Sequence record: OQ561750
Source of the DNA: Escherichia phage LHE83
DNA length: 64,000 bases
Strand: one strand, 5' to 3'
Below the pieces are notes generated by a model. The model saw nothing but the letters and a program-made list of their open reading frames with translations. It was not told the DNA's origin and searched no databases. Within the stretch, counting starts at the first letter, position 1, and the number at the start of each line of letters is the position of its first letter. Shown here piece by piece: positions 19,299 through 34,961 of this stretch. The position numbers and the translations under genes were made by a program.

Positions 19299-19991
<693 letters not shown>

Positions 19992-20002
19992 TTTAAAAAG
20001 GT

Positions 20003-20031
20003 GTTTACAAGGTCTATAGGCATGATACTAT
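20003..20031 (+). promoter_or_regulatory. Early promoter (GTTTAC-N17-TACTAT) with conserved TATAGACCTATCAA box
   Basis: -35 GTTTAC and -10-like TACTAT at 17-nt spacing, 37 nt upstream of ATG 20069. Confidence 0.55.
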
Positions 20032-20068
20032 AGACCTATCAAAACAAACTAACCAAACGGAAATCAAA

Positions 20069-20293
20069 ATGAAAACTTATCAAGAATTTATTACCGAAGC
20101 TAAAAGACATGAAGATGAACTGCCAATTGTTACAAAAACCTTTGATGGCACACTGGCTGATTTTAAAAAAGTCCCTAGTGATAAGCTTGCTAAATTGACT
20201 GGCTCTATCAATGAAAAAGATGGCAAGGTCACGTTTTCTGCTGGCGGCATAGCCAATCTTAAAAAACTTTTGAAAGCCGCTGGCGCTGAATAA
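20069..20293 (+). CDS. Internal-protein-like capsid protein (ipI locus), N-terminal capsid-targeting sequence MKTYQEFITEA
   Basis: 74 aa; N-terminus matches T4 internal protein CTS (MKTYQEFIAE); located next to 57B like T4 ipI. Confidence 0.6.
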   Translation: MKTYQEFITEAKRHEDELPIVTKTFDGTLADFKKVPSDKLAKLTGSINEKDGKVTFSAGGIANLKKLLKAAGAE

Positions 20294-20294
20294 A

Positions 20295-20567
20295 ATGAAA
20301 TCATACCAAGAATTTATCGCTGAATCTATTCTTAATGAAGAAGTAAAAATTAACAAATCTGTTAAGACCATGATTGATAATATAAATCATCTCTATAACA
20401 TCGATTTGACTAATCACGTAACTTTAGGCAATAAGCGAAACTTTTTTGTTTTTGATACTTCAGAACTCGACCAGAATCAAATTAACAATATTGAACGTTT
20501 TGCTAATGAAAAAGGGCTGCGCCACGAGACGGCTGGTTATAAAAAATATGCAATTTATTTAAAATAA
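20295..20567 (+). CDS. Second internal-protein-like gene (CTS MKSYQEFIAES)
   Basis: 90 aa; same CTS-like N-terminus, divergent body; 1-nt spacing after previous gene. Confidence 0.55.
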   Translation: MKSYQEFIAESILNEEVKINKSVKTMIDNINHLYNIDLTNHVTLGNKRNFFVFDTSELDQNQINNIERFANEKGLRHETAGYKKYAIYLK

Positions 20568-20569
20568 TT

Positions 20570-20599
20570 GTTTACAACGGGCTTTAGTGATGGTACTAT
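20570..20599 (+). promoter_or_regulatory. Early promoter (GTTTAC-N18-TACTAT)
   Basis: Motifs upstream of ATG 20636 with conserved CTATCAAAACAA box and GGAGAATAAA SD. Confidence 0.5.
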
Positions 20600-20635
20600 A
20601 GCCCTATCAAAACAAATGAGTGATTGGAGAATAAA

Positions 20636-20821
20636 ATGAAACGTTGTGAATTAATTAGAAATGCTACTGCACTGGCCGCTGTTACTGCTTTTGGCTTTAG
20701 TATGTTTGCAGGATTCATGCTCGATATGCTTTCAACTTCCGAGAATATAATCTCTTTAGTAGTGGCATTCTTAATTGGTTCAATTTCTTTCGTTATGGAT
20801 AAAATCTCTAAAGGTGAATAA
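20636..20821 (+). CDS. Small membrane protein (61 aa)
   Basis: Internal ATG after SD GGAGAA; hydrophobic TM-like segments. Confidence 0.45.
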   Translation: MKRCELIRNATALAAVTAFGFSMFAGFMLDMLSTSENIISLVVAFLIGSISFVMDKISKGE

Positions 20822-21228
20822 TGAACATTGAATATTATGTATATGCGGATTATGAAAATAATCCGTCTAAAGATGAAGATAACCGTTTAGGTGTAGATGC
20901 TTTTGAATCCCCTGCTGCAGCTTGGCAATGGGTTGAAAGTACCGATATTCCTTACCGTTATATTGAAGTGGTAGACCAAGCAGGAAACAAGTATCCTAAG
21001 GAAGCATATGTTCCTTCTGGTAAAGTAAATTTCCTTCTGTTCGCAGGTGATAACTATTATCCACGTGGCGGCTATACCGATTTAATCGCTAAAGCATTTT
21101 CTGAAGACGAACTACGTGATATTATTAACGAAAATGAGAAAAAGCCTCGTTACGGTTCTAATCGTTTTGACTGTGACTGGTGGCAGATTGTTAATGCTAA
21201 TACCCATACTATTGTAGACGAGGGTTAA
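20821..21228 (+). CDS. Hypothetical protein (135 aa)
   Basis: ORF with TAATG overlap to upstream gene; no recognised motif. Confidence 0.45.
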   Translation: MNIEYYVYADYENNPSKDEDNRLGVDAFESPAAAWQWVESTDIPYRYIEVVDQAGNKYPKEAYVPSGKVNFLLFAGDNYYPRGGYTDLIAKAFSEDELRDIINENEKKPRYGSNRFDCDWWQIVNANTHTIVDEG

Positions 21229-30735: not shown

Positions 30736-30968
30736 GCATTGCAATTTATATTAAATCTGAGTCATGTGATTCTTATCTGTATTCCTATGATACCGGAACA
30801 TCAGAAGAGAAAATTAAAGAAGACTTAGAAAGCGATATGGATATGTTCTGTCCTATTGGTGACTATATGCTTCAAGTGTCTGATAGTGAAAGTCCATCAT
30901 CAGAAAATAGACTTCAAATTATTATGCAAGATATTTTTAAACAATCATGGGAACGAGACGATGAGTAA
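30732..30968 (+). CDS. Hypothetical acidic protein (78 aa)
   Basis: ATGA overlap with upstream gene. Confidence 0.4.
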   Translation: MSIAIYIKSESCDSYLYSYDTGTSEEKIKEDLESDMDMFCPIGDYMLQVSDSESPSSENRLQIIMQDIFKQSWERDDE

Positions 30969-31410
30969 GAAAGCTAAGGAATTATCGGCAGGTATTTTGT
31001 TCATGACCGTTGATAAAGAACTAGTTATGGGTCGTGTAACAGGCTCTCGTAATCCAGAGAACATGCGTCATAAATGGGACATTCCTAAAGGTCATGTCGA
31101 ACCAGGCGAAGAGCCTATTCAAGCGGCAATGCGCGAAACCGAAGAAGAGATTGGATTCACAGCATACGATCCTGCATTCCTGAAAGACCTAGGTGAGTTC
31201 AAATATTCAAGCAATAAGAATCTACATCTGTTCTTATATACAGTGCCTGTGGAACACGAGCAGTTCAAGGATTGCAAATGTACGGCTTACCATACGTTCC
31301 CTGATGGTCGTACTATTCCTGAATTCGATGCGTTCGCCTTGATTAAACGTCCGCAATGGGAATATGTCATGGGTAAGTCGATGTTTAAGGTTTTAGATTC
31401 GCTCTTTTGA
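30961..31410 (+). CDS. nudE: Nudix hydrolase (T4 e.1 / NudE-like)
   Basis: Nudix box GHVEPGEEPIQAAMRETEEEIG; adjacent to e as in T4. Confidence 0.7.
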   Translation: MSKKAKELSAGILFMTVDKELVMGRVTGSRNPENMRHKWDIPKGHVEPGEEPIQAAMRETEEEIGFTAYDPAFLKDLGEFKYSSNKNLHLFLYTVPVEHEQFKDCKCTAYHTFPDGRTIPEFDAFALIKRPQWEYVMGKSMFKVLDSLF

Positions 31411-31418
31411 TATAAATA
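31411..31418 (+). promoter_or_regulatory. T4-type late promoter TATAAATA for e, abutting SD-sequestering hairpin CCTCC/GGAGG
   Basis: Exact TATAAATA 22 nt upstream of e ATG; 5-prime arm CCTCC (31419-31423) pairs with SD GGAGG (31432-31436). Confidence 0.6.
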
Positions 31419-31440
31419 CCTCCTATACTCAGGAGGTATT

Positions 31441-31929
31441 ATGGATATTTTTGATATGTTACGTCAAGACGAAGGTCTTGATTTAAATCTTTATAAAGAC
31501 ACTGAAGGTTATTGGACTATTGGTATTGGCCAGTTAGTTACCAAGAACCCATCTAAAGACGTTGCTCGCGCTGAACTTGATAAGCTTATGGGTCGAGTTT
31601 GCAACGGTCGTATTACTATGGCTGAAGCTGAGCAACTCTTTAACCGATCGGTTGAAAATGCTCGTAGAGCTATTCTGCGTAATCCTAAATTGAAACCTGT
31701 TTATGATGTATTAGACGAAGTTCGTCGTTGTGCTTTAATTAACATGGTCTTCCAAATGGGTGAAGCAGGTGTAGCAGGGTTCACTAACTCTTTACGTATG
31801 CTCCAACAGAAACGTTGGGACGATGCGGCAGTTAACCTGGCTCAATCCCGTTGGTATAAACAAACTCCAAATCGTGCTAAGCGCGTGATTTCAACATTTA
31901 AAACCGGCACATGGGCTGCTTATAGATAA
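31441..31929 (+). CDS. e: Endolysin (T4 lysozyme, gene e)
   Basis: 162 aa; [30 protein letters not shown] with catalytic Glu11/Asp20/Thr26 equivalents; high similarity to T4 lysozyme along full length. Confidence 0.9.
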
Positions 31930-31934
31930 AAGCA

Positions 31935-31963
31935 GTTTACATCTCCTAGAATTGTGATAGTAT
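31935..31963 (+). promoter_or_regulatory. Early promoter (GTTTAC-N17-TAGTAT)
   Basis: Motifs upstream of ATG 32017. Confidence 0.5.
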
Positions 31964-32016
31964 ATCTACAGTTACTTGAACAGACCAATTAAAATATTTA
32001 CCTTTAAGGAATCCGT

Positions 32017-32613
32017 ATGAAAACGTATAAAGAATTTATCGCCGAAGCTTCTGTAGGAAAGGTCCAAGGCATTAATAAAGATGAGTGGACTTACAAAGGA
32101 AACGGCGTTGACAACCCAGGAAACGGTTTTGACGCTAAAACAGCTCCTATTGAACGGTATTTAGCTACAAAGGCTTCTGATTTTAAAGCTTTCGCCTGGG
32201 AAGGACTTCGCTGGCGTAACGACCTAAATATTGAAGCTGATGGACTTAAATTTGCCCATATCCAAGATGTTGTTGCTAGTAACTTGGACGCAGCTTTTGT
32301 TAAAGCTGACGGTGACCTTCGTCGCTGGAATTTAAAACTGTTCTCTAAACAGAAAGGTCCTGTATTTGTACCTAAAGCAGGTAAATGGACTATTGATAAT
32401 AAATTGGCTAAGGCGGTCAACTTCGCCGGTCTTGAATTTGCCAAGCACAAATCAGCATGGAAAGGTCTCGATGCAATGACTTTCCGTAAAGAATTTGCCG
32501 ATGTTATGGCTAAAGGCGGCTTTAAGGCAGAAATAGATACCTCTAAAGGTACGTTTAAAGACGCTAATATTCAGTACGCTTACGCCGTTGCTAATGCTGC
32601 CCGTGGTAATTAA
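32017..32613 (+). CDS. ipIII: Internal protein III-like (CTS MKTYKEFIAEA)
   Basis: 198 aa (T4 IPIII 194 aa); CTS N-terminus; position e-ipIII-ipII-denV as in T4. Confidence 0.6.
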   Translation: MKTYKEFIAEASVGKVQGINKDEWTYKGNGVDNPGNGFDAKTAPIERYLATKASDFKAFAWEGLRWRNDLNIEADGLKFAHIQDVVASNLDAAFVKADGDLRRWNLKLFSKQKGPVFVPKAGKWTIDNKLAKAVNFAGLEFAKHKSAWKGLDAMTFRKEFADVMAKGGFKAEIDTSKGTFKDANIQYAYAVANAARGN

Positions 32614-32654
32614 TAAAGCGAATACTCGGACCTATTTACATTTAAAGGAAACAT

Positions 32655-32957
32655 ATGAAAACCTATCAAGAATTTATCACCGAAGCGCGAGTAAGTGCGG
32701 GTAAATTAGAAGCCGCCGTAAATAAAAAGGCCCATTCATTTCATGATTTGCCCGATAAAGACCGTAAGAAACTTGTAAGCCTTTATATTGACAAAGAGCG
32801 TATTCTCGCTCTCCCAGGCGCTAATGAAGGTAAACAGGCCAAGCCTTTGAATTCTGTCGAAAAGAAAATTGATAACTTTGCTTCTAAGTTCGGTATGTCT
32901 ATGGATGACCTTCAGCAAGCGGCTACCGAAGCAGCTAAAGCAATTAAAGGTAAATAA
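32655..32957 (+). CDS. ipII: Internal protein II-like (CTS MKTYQEFITEA)
   Basis: 100 aa (T4 IPII 100 aa); CTS N-terminus; synteny. Confidence 0.6.
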   Translation: MKTYQEFITEARVSAGKLEAAVNKKAHSFHDLPDKDRKKLVSLYIDKERILALPGANEGKQAKPLNSVEKKIDNFASKFGMSMDDLQQAATEAAKAIKGK

Positions 32958-33017
32958 CGGTTTATTTTTACGATAGTTGTGATATAGTGTTCTCATACAA
33001 ACATGGAGAACACTAAA

Positions 33018-33425
33018 ATGACTCGTATCAACCTTACCTTAGTATCTGAATTGGCTGACCAACACTTAATGGCTGAATATCGTGAATTACCACGTGTTTT
33101 CGGTGCAGTTCGTGAACGTATTGCCAAAGGGCAAGGCTTCTCTGATATCCCTAAAGACTTCCGCCTTGGTTCAGGGCACGTCAAGTTCTTTTATGACAAA
33201 ATTGGTTTTTTGTTCTTGCGACAAAATGCAATAATTGAGGAACTTCTGAAGCGTGGTTACCAGATTCAAAATACCCATGTAGACGTAGCGGATATTCCAT
33301 TACGGCTTATGAACGATTTCACTCCAACCGAAGCTGATATAGCTTTAAGCCAAGCTCGTCTGGACGAAAAAATTGCACAGCGTCCTACCTGGTACAAACA
33401 TTATGGCAAGGCTATTTACGCTTAA
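33018..33425 (+). CDS. denV: Endonuclease V (pyrimidine dimer DNA glycosylase)
   Basis: Starts [31 protein letters not shown] and ends [15 protein letters not shown], closely matching T4 DenV; 135 aa from internal ATG. Confidence 0.85.
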
Positions 33426-33468
33426 TTAAATCCGTGATAGAATACTTCTATCAACTTAAGGAATAACA

Positions 33469-33768
33469 ATGAAAACTTATCAAGAATTTATCACAGAAGC
33501 CAAAGCTCCTAAAGCATTTCAAATTGGAGTTCAAGGCAATTTAGACCAAGAATATGTTGATGCTATTGTAGCAAGCCTCGGTAAACAGGGCGTACAAGTC
33601 GATTTTGTTGATTTTACCAAAGGTAATACTTTTAATATTGTTACATCTAAAGGTTCTTTAGCTAAAGTTAAAAAGGCCTTTGGCGTAGCACAAGCATATG
33701 AAATCGACCACTCCGAATTAGAAAATAAAGGTCGCCAGAACACAATTAGAGGTTCTGGTTCTTTCTAA
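33469..33768 (+). CDS. Additional internal-protein-like gene (CTS MKTYQEFITEA)
   Basis: 99 aa; identical CTS-type N-terminus, unrelated body; downstream of denV. Confidence 0.55.
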   Translation: MKTYQEFITEAKAPKAFQIGVQGNLDQEYVDAIVASLGKQGVQVDFVDFTKGNTFNIVTSKGSLAKVKKAFGVAQAYEIDHSELENKGRQNTIRGSGSF

Positions 33769-33864
33769 TAAAGGCAAGCCGGCCCTCTCCTCATGAACGT
33801 CGCGTCCTCTGAGTGATGGACCTTTCCCTACCTGTAATAAGGTCGAGCCCAAGTGCGGTAAAGG

Positions 33865-33893
33865 GTTTACATACGGATACATGGATGAATTAT
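33865..33893 (+). promoter_or_regulatory. Early promoter candidate (GTTTAC-N17-AATTAT) inside GC-rich spacer
   Basis: -35 GTTTAC seen; -10 weak. Confidence 0.35.
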
Positions 33894-33929
33894 GTGCCAA
33901 GGAACGGCCCCACCAACTAAGAGACAATT

Positions 33930-34457
33930 ATGAAATTTTTAACTCCCATTTATCTAACCTTAATGCACGCCTTCGCTGAACGCGCCATTGAACGTTTAGA
34001 CTCAGACCAATACACCTGGTATGAACCCGCTTCAAGAATGCAAGAGTTTGGTACTCTGAGACTTGACGGTGGGCGACAAACAGGTAAAACAAGTGCCATT
34101 GCGCAGTTTGCTGCGGATTGGGTTTCCAAGGGTAATGATGTGATTGTTATGTCGAGTTCTTCGCATCGCTCGCGAGAAATTTGTAATGTAATAAAACAGG
34201 TTTCTAAGGCACACCCACATCTCCAAGTCGAAGGTCCTGGTTTTGTTGTCTATGATACTGTGCGCAGTTTCCTTGATGAAGACAATTTCCATAAGTATCG
34301 TGGACTATCTGTTACTCGATTATTGATTATTATCGAAGAGCCAATGCGCCTTCCAGCGATGGATAAGTTCTATGAAGCTTACCAGGTAATGATTAATAAA
34401 TTTATGTGCCAAGGCGACAAGCCTTTGCCTCTGTTCTTTGTGATAGGAATGCAATGA
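33930..34457 (+). CDS. Small P-loop NTPase-like protein (175 aa)
   Basis: Walker A-like GGRQTGKTS and Walker B-like LLIIIEEP. Confidence 0.45.
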   Translation: MKFLTPIYLTLMHAFAERAIERLDSDQYTWYEPASRMQEFGTLRLDGGRQTGKTSAIAQFAADWVSKGNDVIVMSSSSHRSREICNVIKQVSKAHPHLQVEGPGFVVYDTVRSFLDEDNFHKYRGLSVTRLLIIIEEPMRLPAMDKFYEAYQVMINKFMCQGDKPLPLFFVIGMQ

Positions 34458-34750
34458 TGACTGATGAAGAACTTTTTGAGTTCTGTTATTTCTCACGTAA
34501 GGTTCGAAGAGAGGACCTTACTGCAAATTTCGAGTATGCTTATTTCTATCCATTAGAATATGTATTCATGACAGGGCCCTTTAAGGGCTCTCGTTTTAGA
34601 TGTCATGCCCCAAGCATCCGATTAATGAAACAGGTTCCTTACTTCACCCTCGAGTTCATCTCAGGGCCTTGTAAGGGTATTATAACTCGTAGTCTCTTGA
34701 CATATGACCAAGAGATTCATATGATTTCTGACTGGAAAAAATATGTCTAA
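34454..34750 (+). CDS. Hypothetical protein (98 aa)
   Basis: ATGATGA start/stop overlap with upstream gene. Confidence 0.4.
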   Translation: MMTDEELFEFCYFSRKVRREDLTANFEYAYFYPLEYVFMTGPFKGSRFRCHAPSIRLMKQVPYFTLEFISGPCKGIITRSLLTYDQEIHMISDWKKYV

Positions 34751-34961
34751 ATTGTCAATTGAAGGCTCTGATGAAGCTCTGAAGATGTTTGTTGATTGGT
34801 TCCACGAACAGGGCGAACAAGGCTTTTTGGAATGTTGGAATGGTGGACAATGGAACGGTAAAGAAACCGTTTATCCGAGCACATATATCTCTGTTCGTGG
34901 CGGACCCAACGGCCTTCGTTTAGTGGAATACGATATCGCAACTGGTGAGGAAGTAAAATGA
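34743..34961 (+). CDS. Hypothetical protein (72 aa)
   Basis: Overlapping start; compact array. Confidence 0.4.
   Translation: MSKLSIEGSDEALKMFVDWFHEQGEQGFLECWNGGQWNGKETVYPSTYISVRGGPNGLRLVEYDIATGEEVK

Follow-up and report, generated by a model that had tools for sequence, protein, structure and literature searches.

An Ip7-family internal-protein gene downstream of denV in Escherichia phage LHE83 and the shuffling of gene cassettes at the e-proximal locus

The stretch of Escherichia phage LHE83 analyzed here (record OQ561750; 64,000 nt, hereafter the window, with positions counted from its first letter) contains, next to the lysozyme gene e, a locus of internal protein (IP) genes that begin with the codons of a 10-residue capsid targeting sequence (CTS). 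The subject of this work is the last gene of that locus, a 99-aa open reading frame (ORF) located downstream of denV, which is recognized below as a member of the Ip7 family. In the list of ORFs compiled for 29.5-36.5 kb, the genes form a co-directional array on the plus strand in the order nudE, e, ipIII, ipII, denV, the 99-aa ORF (Ip7) and vs.8. The original prediction for this locus, derived from the DNA letters alone, had given coordinates and sequences of the locus ORFs that agree with this list in every detail, and had placed ipIII- and ipII-like genes between e and denV as in T4; the encoded proteins are indeed 87% identical to T4 IpIII and 95% identical to T4 IpII (the latter across 86 aa). 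In the T4 genome, which was compared for this purpose, the order e-ipIII-ipII-denV is followed directly by vs.8, without an IP gene after denV, so that the post-denV gene is extra relative to T4, as had been proposed. A megablast search of the phage collection with the locus (31400-34500) returned 776 records, the best being those of the Dhakavirus phages C6, MX01, AnYang, QL01, JS10 and JS98 at ~93-98% identity; the 3.1-kb e-proximal locus is ~96% identical to complete Dhakavirus genomes, and the second IP locus of the window (19536-20830), located near gene 57B, is 99.5% identical to QL01. These matches identify the window as part of a JS98-like (JS98/MX01/QL01-like) T4-type coliphage of the Dhakavirus group.

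Profile and pairwise comparisons place the post-denV gene in the Ip7 family, which has been named before, and the gene is hence not novel. The 99-aa protein matches the PHROG 2667 profile "internal head protein" (E=7e-43), with residues 1-99 aligned to positions 1-101 of the 101-position profile; it is homologous over the full length to T2 Ip7 (50% identity, E=1e-29) and 94% identical to the product of a gene named ip7 in VR26, and the identical protein is encoded by QL01, IME540 and FB. Homologues are carried by 283 phage records, many of them labelled ip7 or internal head protein. At the post-denV position, the RefSeq label is "internal head protein" in JS98, MX01, JS10 and QL01, and the gene is called ip7 in the annotation of VR5 and VR26. 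The suggestion that the extra member is a candidate novel effector therefore does not hold. We are nearly certain that this is a functional gene of the Ip7 family, and consider it quite probable that, beyond this, its product is packaged by way of the CTS and injected.

The repeat that unites the IP genes is confined to the CTS codons. The 23-nt motif ATGAAAACTTATCAAGAATTTAT occurs in the window at five sites with at most 3 mismatches, compared with 0 expected from 100 shuffles; all five (20069, 20295, 32017, 32655 and 33469) are on the plus strand. A protein scan of both strands of the window detected exactly five ORFs whose N-termini agree with MKTYQEFIAE at 9/10 positions or more and which share the pattern MK(T/S)Y(Q/K)EFI(A/T)E, so that the predicted number of five IP-type genes is recovered by both the nucleotide and the protein scan. 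Two of these genes, of the Ip8 and Ip9 types, constitute the second, 57B-proximal ("ipI") locus of the window, and by their profile and sequence matches all five belong to previously named families. When the 5' ends are aligned pairwise, identity amounts to 80-93% within the 30 nt coding for the CTS and to 25-40%, a random level, both over the next 60 nt and over the 40 nt upstream. The five mature proteins are computed to be basic or near-neutral (pI 8.0-9.7), mature IpIII comprising 188 aa (pI 9.5) and mature IpII 90 aa (pI 9.7). In the CTS of T4 IPIII, Tyr4 and Phe7 have been mapped as targeting residues, and Ile8 and Glu10 as processing residues; the prohead protease gp21 cleaves after L/I-x-E, and Glu10 is needed for this cleavage (PMC9026906). 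The first 10 residues are enough in T4 to package even foreign proteins, and gp21 and the gp22-type scaffold belong to the core genes of T4-related phages (PMC9026906); by the usual T4 gene order, genes 21 and 22 should fall outside the window.

The CTS of the Ip7-type protein, MKTYQEFITE, retains all four mapped residues (Y4, F7, I8 and E10), and I8-T9-E10, followed by Ala11, is the sole L/I-x-E site in the protein. Among 17 homologues, with identity down to 47%, the CTS residues, the four mapped ones among them, vary little or not at all, position 4 being nearly invariant and position 7 invariant. Cleavage by gp21 at Glu10 is predicted to expose the N-terminus AKAPKAFQIGVQGNLDQEYVDAIVASLGK (AKAPKAF...) and to leave a mature product of 89 aa, with a computed mass of 9.5 kDa, pI 9.0, 9 Lys and a net charge of +2. 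The dN/dS ratio (nonsynonymous to synonymous substitution rates, by the Nei-Gojobori method) is 0.05-0.13 in comparisons with MX01, JS98, VR5, KIT01 and CkP1, in which dS reaches ~0.9, and is unchanged when the CTS codons are excluded; as estimated from these substitutions, the gene is under strong purifying selection. The AlphaFold2 model built from the family alignment has a confident core (pLDDT ~85, residues 12-88), for which a beta-alpha-beta-beta-alpha-beta topology with a C-terminal helix, that is, a generic ferredoxin-like fold, is predicted. A structure search of BFVD with this model yielded a single significant match, the "Ip7 protein" of MX01. A Pfam search with the protein gave only sub-threshold noise and no family at threshold, and a PDB sequence search gave no match. 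A profile search of 1.8 billion representatives returned 8 matches, consisting of IPs or IP fragments of T4-like phages and three large repeat proteins that were judged spurious. Two short metagenomic proteins are chimeric: in P0023, the Ip7 body is joined to the C-terminus of an Ip9-type protein (...RFANDKGLRHEPGGYKKYAIYLK), and in P0024, the Ip7 N-terminus is joined to the C-terminus of the window ORF 34743-34961 (...GLRLVEYDIATGEEVK). Their composition suggests further deletions that fused IP genes to their neighbours in uncultured relatives.

The features of both IP loci are compiled in Table 1. Minus-strand ORFs within ipIII and ip7 (e.g. 32091-32450) were treated as mechanical shadows, the overlying plus-strand genes being well supported.

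Table 1. Genes and sequence elements of the two internal-protein loci and their surroundings (window positions)
Feature	Position	Strand	Basis or remark
Ip8-type internal protein gene, 74 aa	20069..20293	+	PHROG 8765; called ip8 in VR5
Ip9-type internal protein gene, 90 aa	20295..20567	+	PHROG 7673, E=7e-56; Ip9 in IME08, VR5, WG01
nudE	30961-31410	+	ORF list
Late promoter motif TATAAATA, canonical T4-type	31411..31418	+	Motif scan; directly upstream of e
e, T4-type lysozyme; left anchor of the e-proximal IP locus	31441..31929	+	Annotated e in JS98, JS10
ipIII orthologue, 198 aa, MKTYKEFIAEAS...	32017..32613	+	CTS codons 32017-32046; PHROG 5341, E=4e-115
ipII orthologue, 100 aa, MKTYQEFITEAR...	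32655..32957	+	CTS codons 32655-32684; PHROG 7857, E=2e-54
denV, endonuclease V	33018..33425	+	PHROG 1183, Pfam PF03013; mechanical ORF from 33003
Early-promoter-like site TTTACG-17 nt-TAGAAT, upstream TG	33415..33443	+	Consensus match only
Small 8-bp AT-rich hairpin UGAUAGAA-UAC-UUCUAUCA	33435..33453	+	Weak fold, z=-1.1
Ip7-family internal protein gene, 99 aa, MKTYQEFITEAKAPKAF...	33469..33768	+	CTS MKTYQEFITE, codons 33469-33498
G+C-rich spacer (50% GC) preceding vs.8	33827..33929	+	Apparent relic of vs.8 5' coding region
vs.8	33930-34457	+	ORF list

The e-to-vs.8 locus was fetched from nine Dhakavirus genomes (MX01, C6, JS98, JS10, QL01, VR5, IME341, KIT01 and WG01), and the CTS-bearing ORFs were listed. 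The comparison of these loci reveals variable combinations and orders of the IP genes, amounting to eight different arrangements of six CTS-bearing genes (Table 2, which includes the arrangement of the window).

Table 2. Order of genes at the e-proximal locus in the window and in Dhakavirus genomes
Phage	Gene order
Window	e / IpIII / IpII / denV / Ip7
MX01, C6	e / Ip132 / IpIII / IpII / denV / Ip7
JS98, JS10	e / IpIII / Ip132 / denV / Ip7
QL01	e / Ip132 / IpIII / denV / Ip7
VR5	e / IpIII / Ip7 / denV
IME341	e / IpII / denV / Ip7
KIT01	e / Ip132 / IpII / denV / Ip119 / Ip7
WG01	e / Ip132 / IpIII / denV / Ip119 / Ip85

Relative to the window, the blastn breakpoints are located either at the 3' end of the CTS codons (32048, 33498) or a few bases before start codons (32633/32647, 33456). 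The clearest crossover is that of IME341, in which ipII (locus positions 1723-2025) starts with a chimeric CTS, MKTYNEFITEAR: the 3' end of e, together with ~24 nt from the start of the Ip132 CTS (in which codon 5 is AAT, Asn), is followed by the end of the ipII CTS and the ipII body. The 5' half of this CTS and its overlap with the end of e thus derive from the gene of the 132-aa IP. Read from its sequence, this junction is a crossover within the CTS and a direct footprint of recombination between 30-nt repeats that deleted Ip132 and ipIII. In VR5, Ip7 is found upstream of denV, and homology with the window is limited to the Ip7 gene (33468-33767). In KIT01, the region upstream of ipIII is joined to ipII inside a shared TATTTAC-TTTAA-GGA ribosome-binding region. 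In both KIT01 and WG01, the 3' flank of denV, with the promoter-hairpin element described below unchanged, continues into the body of Ip119 in place of Ip7; in KIT01, Ip7 comes after Ip119 behind another CTS, so that copies of the CTS delimit the inserted Ip119. Taken together, the junctions support the exchange of cassettes by recombination in the CTS codons and the adjacent translation and promoter signals, in line with the proposal that the repeated 5' coding sequence serves as the substrate of cassette exchange. Polymorphism of the IP loci and the shuffling hypothesis date to Repoila et al. 1994, as this work is cited in PMC2839356 and PMC12373910; the IP genes have been described as confined to two hyperplastic loci, and the number of reported IP variants had exceeded 30 by 2007 (PMC2839356). 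The locus is accordingly a clear, though unexceptional, case of a kind of cassette shuffling that is already known, and of the original interpretation the reading of the locus and the cassette logic stand, and the novelty of the extra member does not. As a compact natural experiment, the Dhakavirus e-locus displays crossover footprints in a 30-nt coding repeat and illustrates how modular exchange between phage genomes can be driven by very short conserved sequences.

Upstream of the Ip7-type gene, the early-promoter-like site TTTACG-17-TAGAAT overlaps the denV stop codon and lies ~25 nt before the Ip7 start; it agrees with TTTACW-N17-TAYWAT, the early-promoter portion of the promoter-early stem-loops (PeSLs) of the phage pair T4/PST (consensus from PMC4122927). 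A weak hairpin (z=-1.1) overlaps the -10 box of this site, and the ATG is preceded by the Shine-Dalgarno sequence AAGGAA. At the level of consensus, the promoter and the hairpin resemble a PeSL-like "IP-associated element", the term used by Arbiol et al. (PMC2839356) for the combination of a promoter and an AT-rich hairpin that Repoila et al. had observed at the two IP loci. At the 57B-proximal locus, a perfect 10-bp hairpin, AGGTCTATAG-N8-CTATAGACCT, is present at 20005-20045, upstream of the Ip8-type gene, the first of that locus; it lies directly downstream of GTTTACA, its 3' arm overlaps a TACTAT -10-like hexamer, and it folds far better than shuffled sequences (z=-4.9, 0/200), which makes it a strong example of the promoter-plus-stem-loop elements of IP loci. 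A permissive Rfam search of 31300-34600 gave no match. Apart from the copy at 31411, no exact TATAAATA occurs within 31300-33900. The sole terminator-like site found is within e, and none is located between e and vs.8; late transcripts over ipIII-ipII-denV-ip7 would thus arise by read-through from the promoter at 31411.

By analogy with T4 IPIII, IPII and IPI, we infer the following expression timing, packaging, injection and anti-defence function for the Ip7-type protein. Transcription would start at the early-type promoter of the gene itself and would be supplemented, in the late phase of infection, by read-through transcripts initiated at the late promoter that precedes e. Guided by its CTS, the protein would join the prohead scaffolding core, and gp21 would cut I-T-E/A after Glu10; the basic 89-residue mature protein would remain in the head alongside the DNA, enter the next host by injection, and there would neutralise one specific first-line defence, for which a GmrSD-like type IV restriction subtype is the best precedent. 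T4 Ip1 inhibits GmrSD of strain CT596 and, as reported by Silas et al. 2025, Ip2 inhibits GmrSD/BrxU of ECOR21 and Ip3 the two-gene GmrS1/GmrSD2 of ECOR17; each of the three inhibits a different GmrSD type IV enzyme, without cross-protection (PMC12373910). A further precedent is that IPIII is active in the cytoplasm when it lacks the CTS (Srikant et al. 2022, PMC9391042). The ipII and ipIII orthologues of the window probably retain the T4 specificities. For the Ip7-type protein, by the same analogy, packaging and injection are very likely, its role as a specific anti-defence inhibitor is an evenly balanced proposition, and a target within the GmrSD class appears doubtful.

Several observations weigh against this scheme. 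A canonical late promoter was not found directly upstream of the Ip7-type gene, and the early-type promoter and hairpin are matches at the level of consensus, in a region where 7 promoter-like sites are present compared with 6.2 expected, that is, without enrichment. In the literature library that was searched, no virion proteomics or packaging report on Ip7 was found. Furthermore, in the one published screen to include ip7, in which ip4-10 were set against GmrSD variants, an apparent interaction between ip7 and CLS_011 was not reproducible (PMC12373910, supplementary figure 9); an anti-GmrSD role is therefore a guess from precedent, and what is proposed is an analogy to the GmrSD inhibitors, not membership in their class.

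According to an alternative view, Ip7 is packaged by means of its CTS without having a specific host target, acting mainly as a basic counter-ion or DNA-organising head protein or as redundant ballast. The basic or near-neutral character of all five mature IPs of the window, and the pI of 9.0 and 9 Lys of the Ip7-type protein, would suit such a role, as would the lack of reproducible anti-GmrSD activity of ip7 and the finding, made in T4 by solid-state nuclear magnetic resonance, that lysines of internal proteins touch the DNA phosphate (PMC3012670). However, a net charge of just +2 is weak for a counter-ion, and dN/dS of ~0.1 over the whole folded body implies constraint on a specific structure and not on composition alone. 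In addition, presence and absence turn over quickly among close relatives, which is typical of arms-race genes, and all three once "mysterious" T4 IPs proved to be specific inhibitors, so that this explanation seems improbable, although it is the strongest of the alternatives. Considerably less probable is an early cytoplasmic protein that is never packaged and whose CTS is a remnant, in evolutionary terms, of cassette exchange. This explanation would account for the early-type promoter being the only signal directly upstream, and there is precedent in IPIII, which acts in the cytoplasm without its CTS (Srikant et al. 2022, PMC9391042), but it is difficult to reconcile with the (near-)invariance of the CTS in homologues as distant as 47% identity, with the sufficiency of the first 10 residues for packaging even foreign proteins in T4 (PMC9026906) and with the unobstructed read-through from the e late promoter. 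Finally, the notion of a pseudogene or duplicated fragment that has no function and merely keeps the CTS, prompted by the shortness of the ORF and by a 5' end nearly identical to those of its neighbours and named with the original prediction as a possible refutation, is excluded for practical purposes by the dN/dS values of 0.05-0.13 at dS up to 0.9, and is countered further by the full-length conservation of the gene in 282 phage records from several genera, by the confident fold prediction, and by a body that past the CTS does not resemble the IP genes next to it and therefore is not a recent local duplicate.

The preferred reading, a packaged and injected Ip7 protein, can be compared with known systems at several levels. 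T2 Ip7, which belongs to the IP series of Repoila et al. 1994, is similar to the Ip7-type protein of the window in length (102 and 99 aa) and has the same CTS, cleavage motif and predicted fold. The T2, RB69 and WG01 members of the family are encoded in the 57B-proximal (ipI) locus, whereas the window copy is in the e-proximal locus, as are those of Dhakavirus, Jiaodavirus JD18 and Karamvirus CkP1; the e-locus proteins of Dhakavirus, Jiaodavirus and a Karamvirus form a separate subclade, at least 62% identical within itself. Annotated ip7 genes are available in T2 (MH751506), VR5, VR26 and WG01. The same gene occupies the same post-denV position in QL01 (YP_009202844.1), JS98 (YP_001595241.1, orf112), MX01 (YP_009324008.1) and JS10 (YP_002922459.1), and compared with the protein of the window, that of QL01 is 100% identical and those of MX01, JS98 and KIT01 are 96-97% identical. 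The window differs from these relatives in lacking the 132-aa IP of MX01, C6 and QL01, in having ipII, which is missing in QL01 and WG01, and in carrying a minority allele of denV. In MX01, two Ip7 paralogues are present, the 99-aa protein of the post-denV, e-locus type and a 102-aa "Ip7 protein" (A0A172Q2C4), which are ~50% identical; the latter is presumably of the T2 type, and the coexistence of both in a single genome indicates that the subclades are probably not functionally redundant.

With T4 IPI*, IPII and IPIII, the Ip7-type protein shares the logic of CTS-dependent packaging, the use of the same two loci, small size and dispensability, but no sequence similarity beyond the CTS; T4 Ip1-3 have defined GmrSD targets, whereas Ip7 has none. 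The predicted ferredoxin-like fold differs, in a comparison by description only, from the two beta-sheets and flanking terminal helices of IPI* (PMC3012670). The PeSLs, known from T4-type phages as mobile cassettes with a regulatory role (Arbiol et al. 2010, PMC2839356; Comeau et al. 2014, PMC4122927), likewise place an early promoter and a hairpin directly upstream of variable genes, and at the locus studied here one and the same element is found ahead of IP bodies that vary between phages. The IP-associated elements, with their AT-rich and weak stems, have been described as analogous but not homologous to PeSLs (PMC2839356). Unlike in PeSL cassettes, the clearest crossover observed here, that of IME341, is within the CTS coding sequence itself.

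Because T4 Ip1-3 each block one specific GmrSD enzyme, the remaining IP families represent ready-made probes for host defences. We tentatively put forward, at slightly less than an even chance, that the e-locus Ip7 subclade of Dhakavirus, Jiaodavirus and Karamvirus is a dedicated injected inhibitor of a not yet identified host defence. If so, the candidate targets would be a GmrSD subtype beyond the eight tested or another enzyme attacking modified DNA, two Ip7 paralogues in a genome would mean two distinct targets, and the small ferredoxin-like fold would represent a new type of scaffold for an inhibitor. The practical value of the post-denV gene is modest, and as a discovery it matters little, given that the gene, the family name, the position and the shuffling mechanism are already in databases or in the literature.

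A T4-like start of denV (MTRINL) is found at 33018, with GGAG 8 nt upstream, and the mechanical ORF starts at 33003. The upstream ATG at 33003 and the GGAG of the 33018 start both lie within a 10-bp hairpin, AGTGTTCTCA...GGAGAACACT, at 32984-33014 (z=-2.3), which suggests that the true start is 33018 and not 33003; the hairpin may regulate denV translation. For the central third of denV (~33114-33320), neither megablast nor blastn gave a match in any of nine Dhakavirus relatives that are ~95% identical elsewhere, and the encoded segment differs from that of the relatives (...AVRKHVANGKRVRDFK...). Only a few phages match the whole of denV, namely Salmonella phage ABTNLS3 (96.7%) and Escherichia phages 04086 and 212. 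Judged by these comparisons, denV is a conserved repair gene with a mosaic structure, the center of which is a minority allele.

Between ip7 and vs.8, there is a 160-nt spacer (33769-33929) with 50% GC, compared with 39% for the window. The RNA fold of its G+C-rich part is not significant (z=-0.3), and a search of that part against Rfam gave no match. In the frame of vs.8, the 3' part of the spacer encodes LPVIRSSPSAV..., of which PVIRSSPSAV is common to the N-terminus of T4 Vs.8 (MRDSRQPVIRSSPSAV...), and this reading frame is closed by a TAA four codons ahead of the vs.8 ATG at 33930. Longer versions of vs.8 are annotated in JS98 and WG01, and the spacer resembles a 5' portion of vs.8 that has decayed or been split off, a relic of a longer N-terminal coding region of the T4 type.

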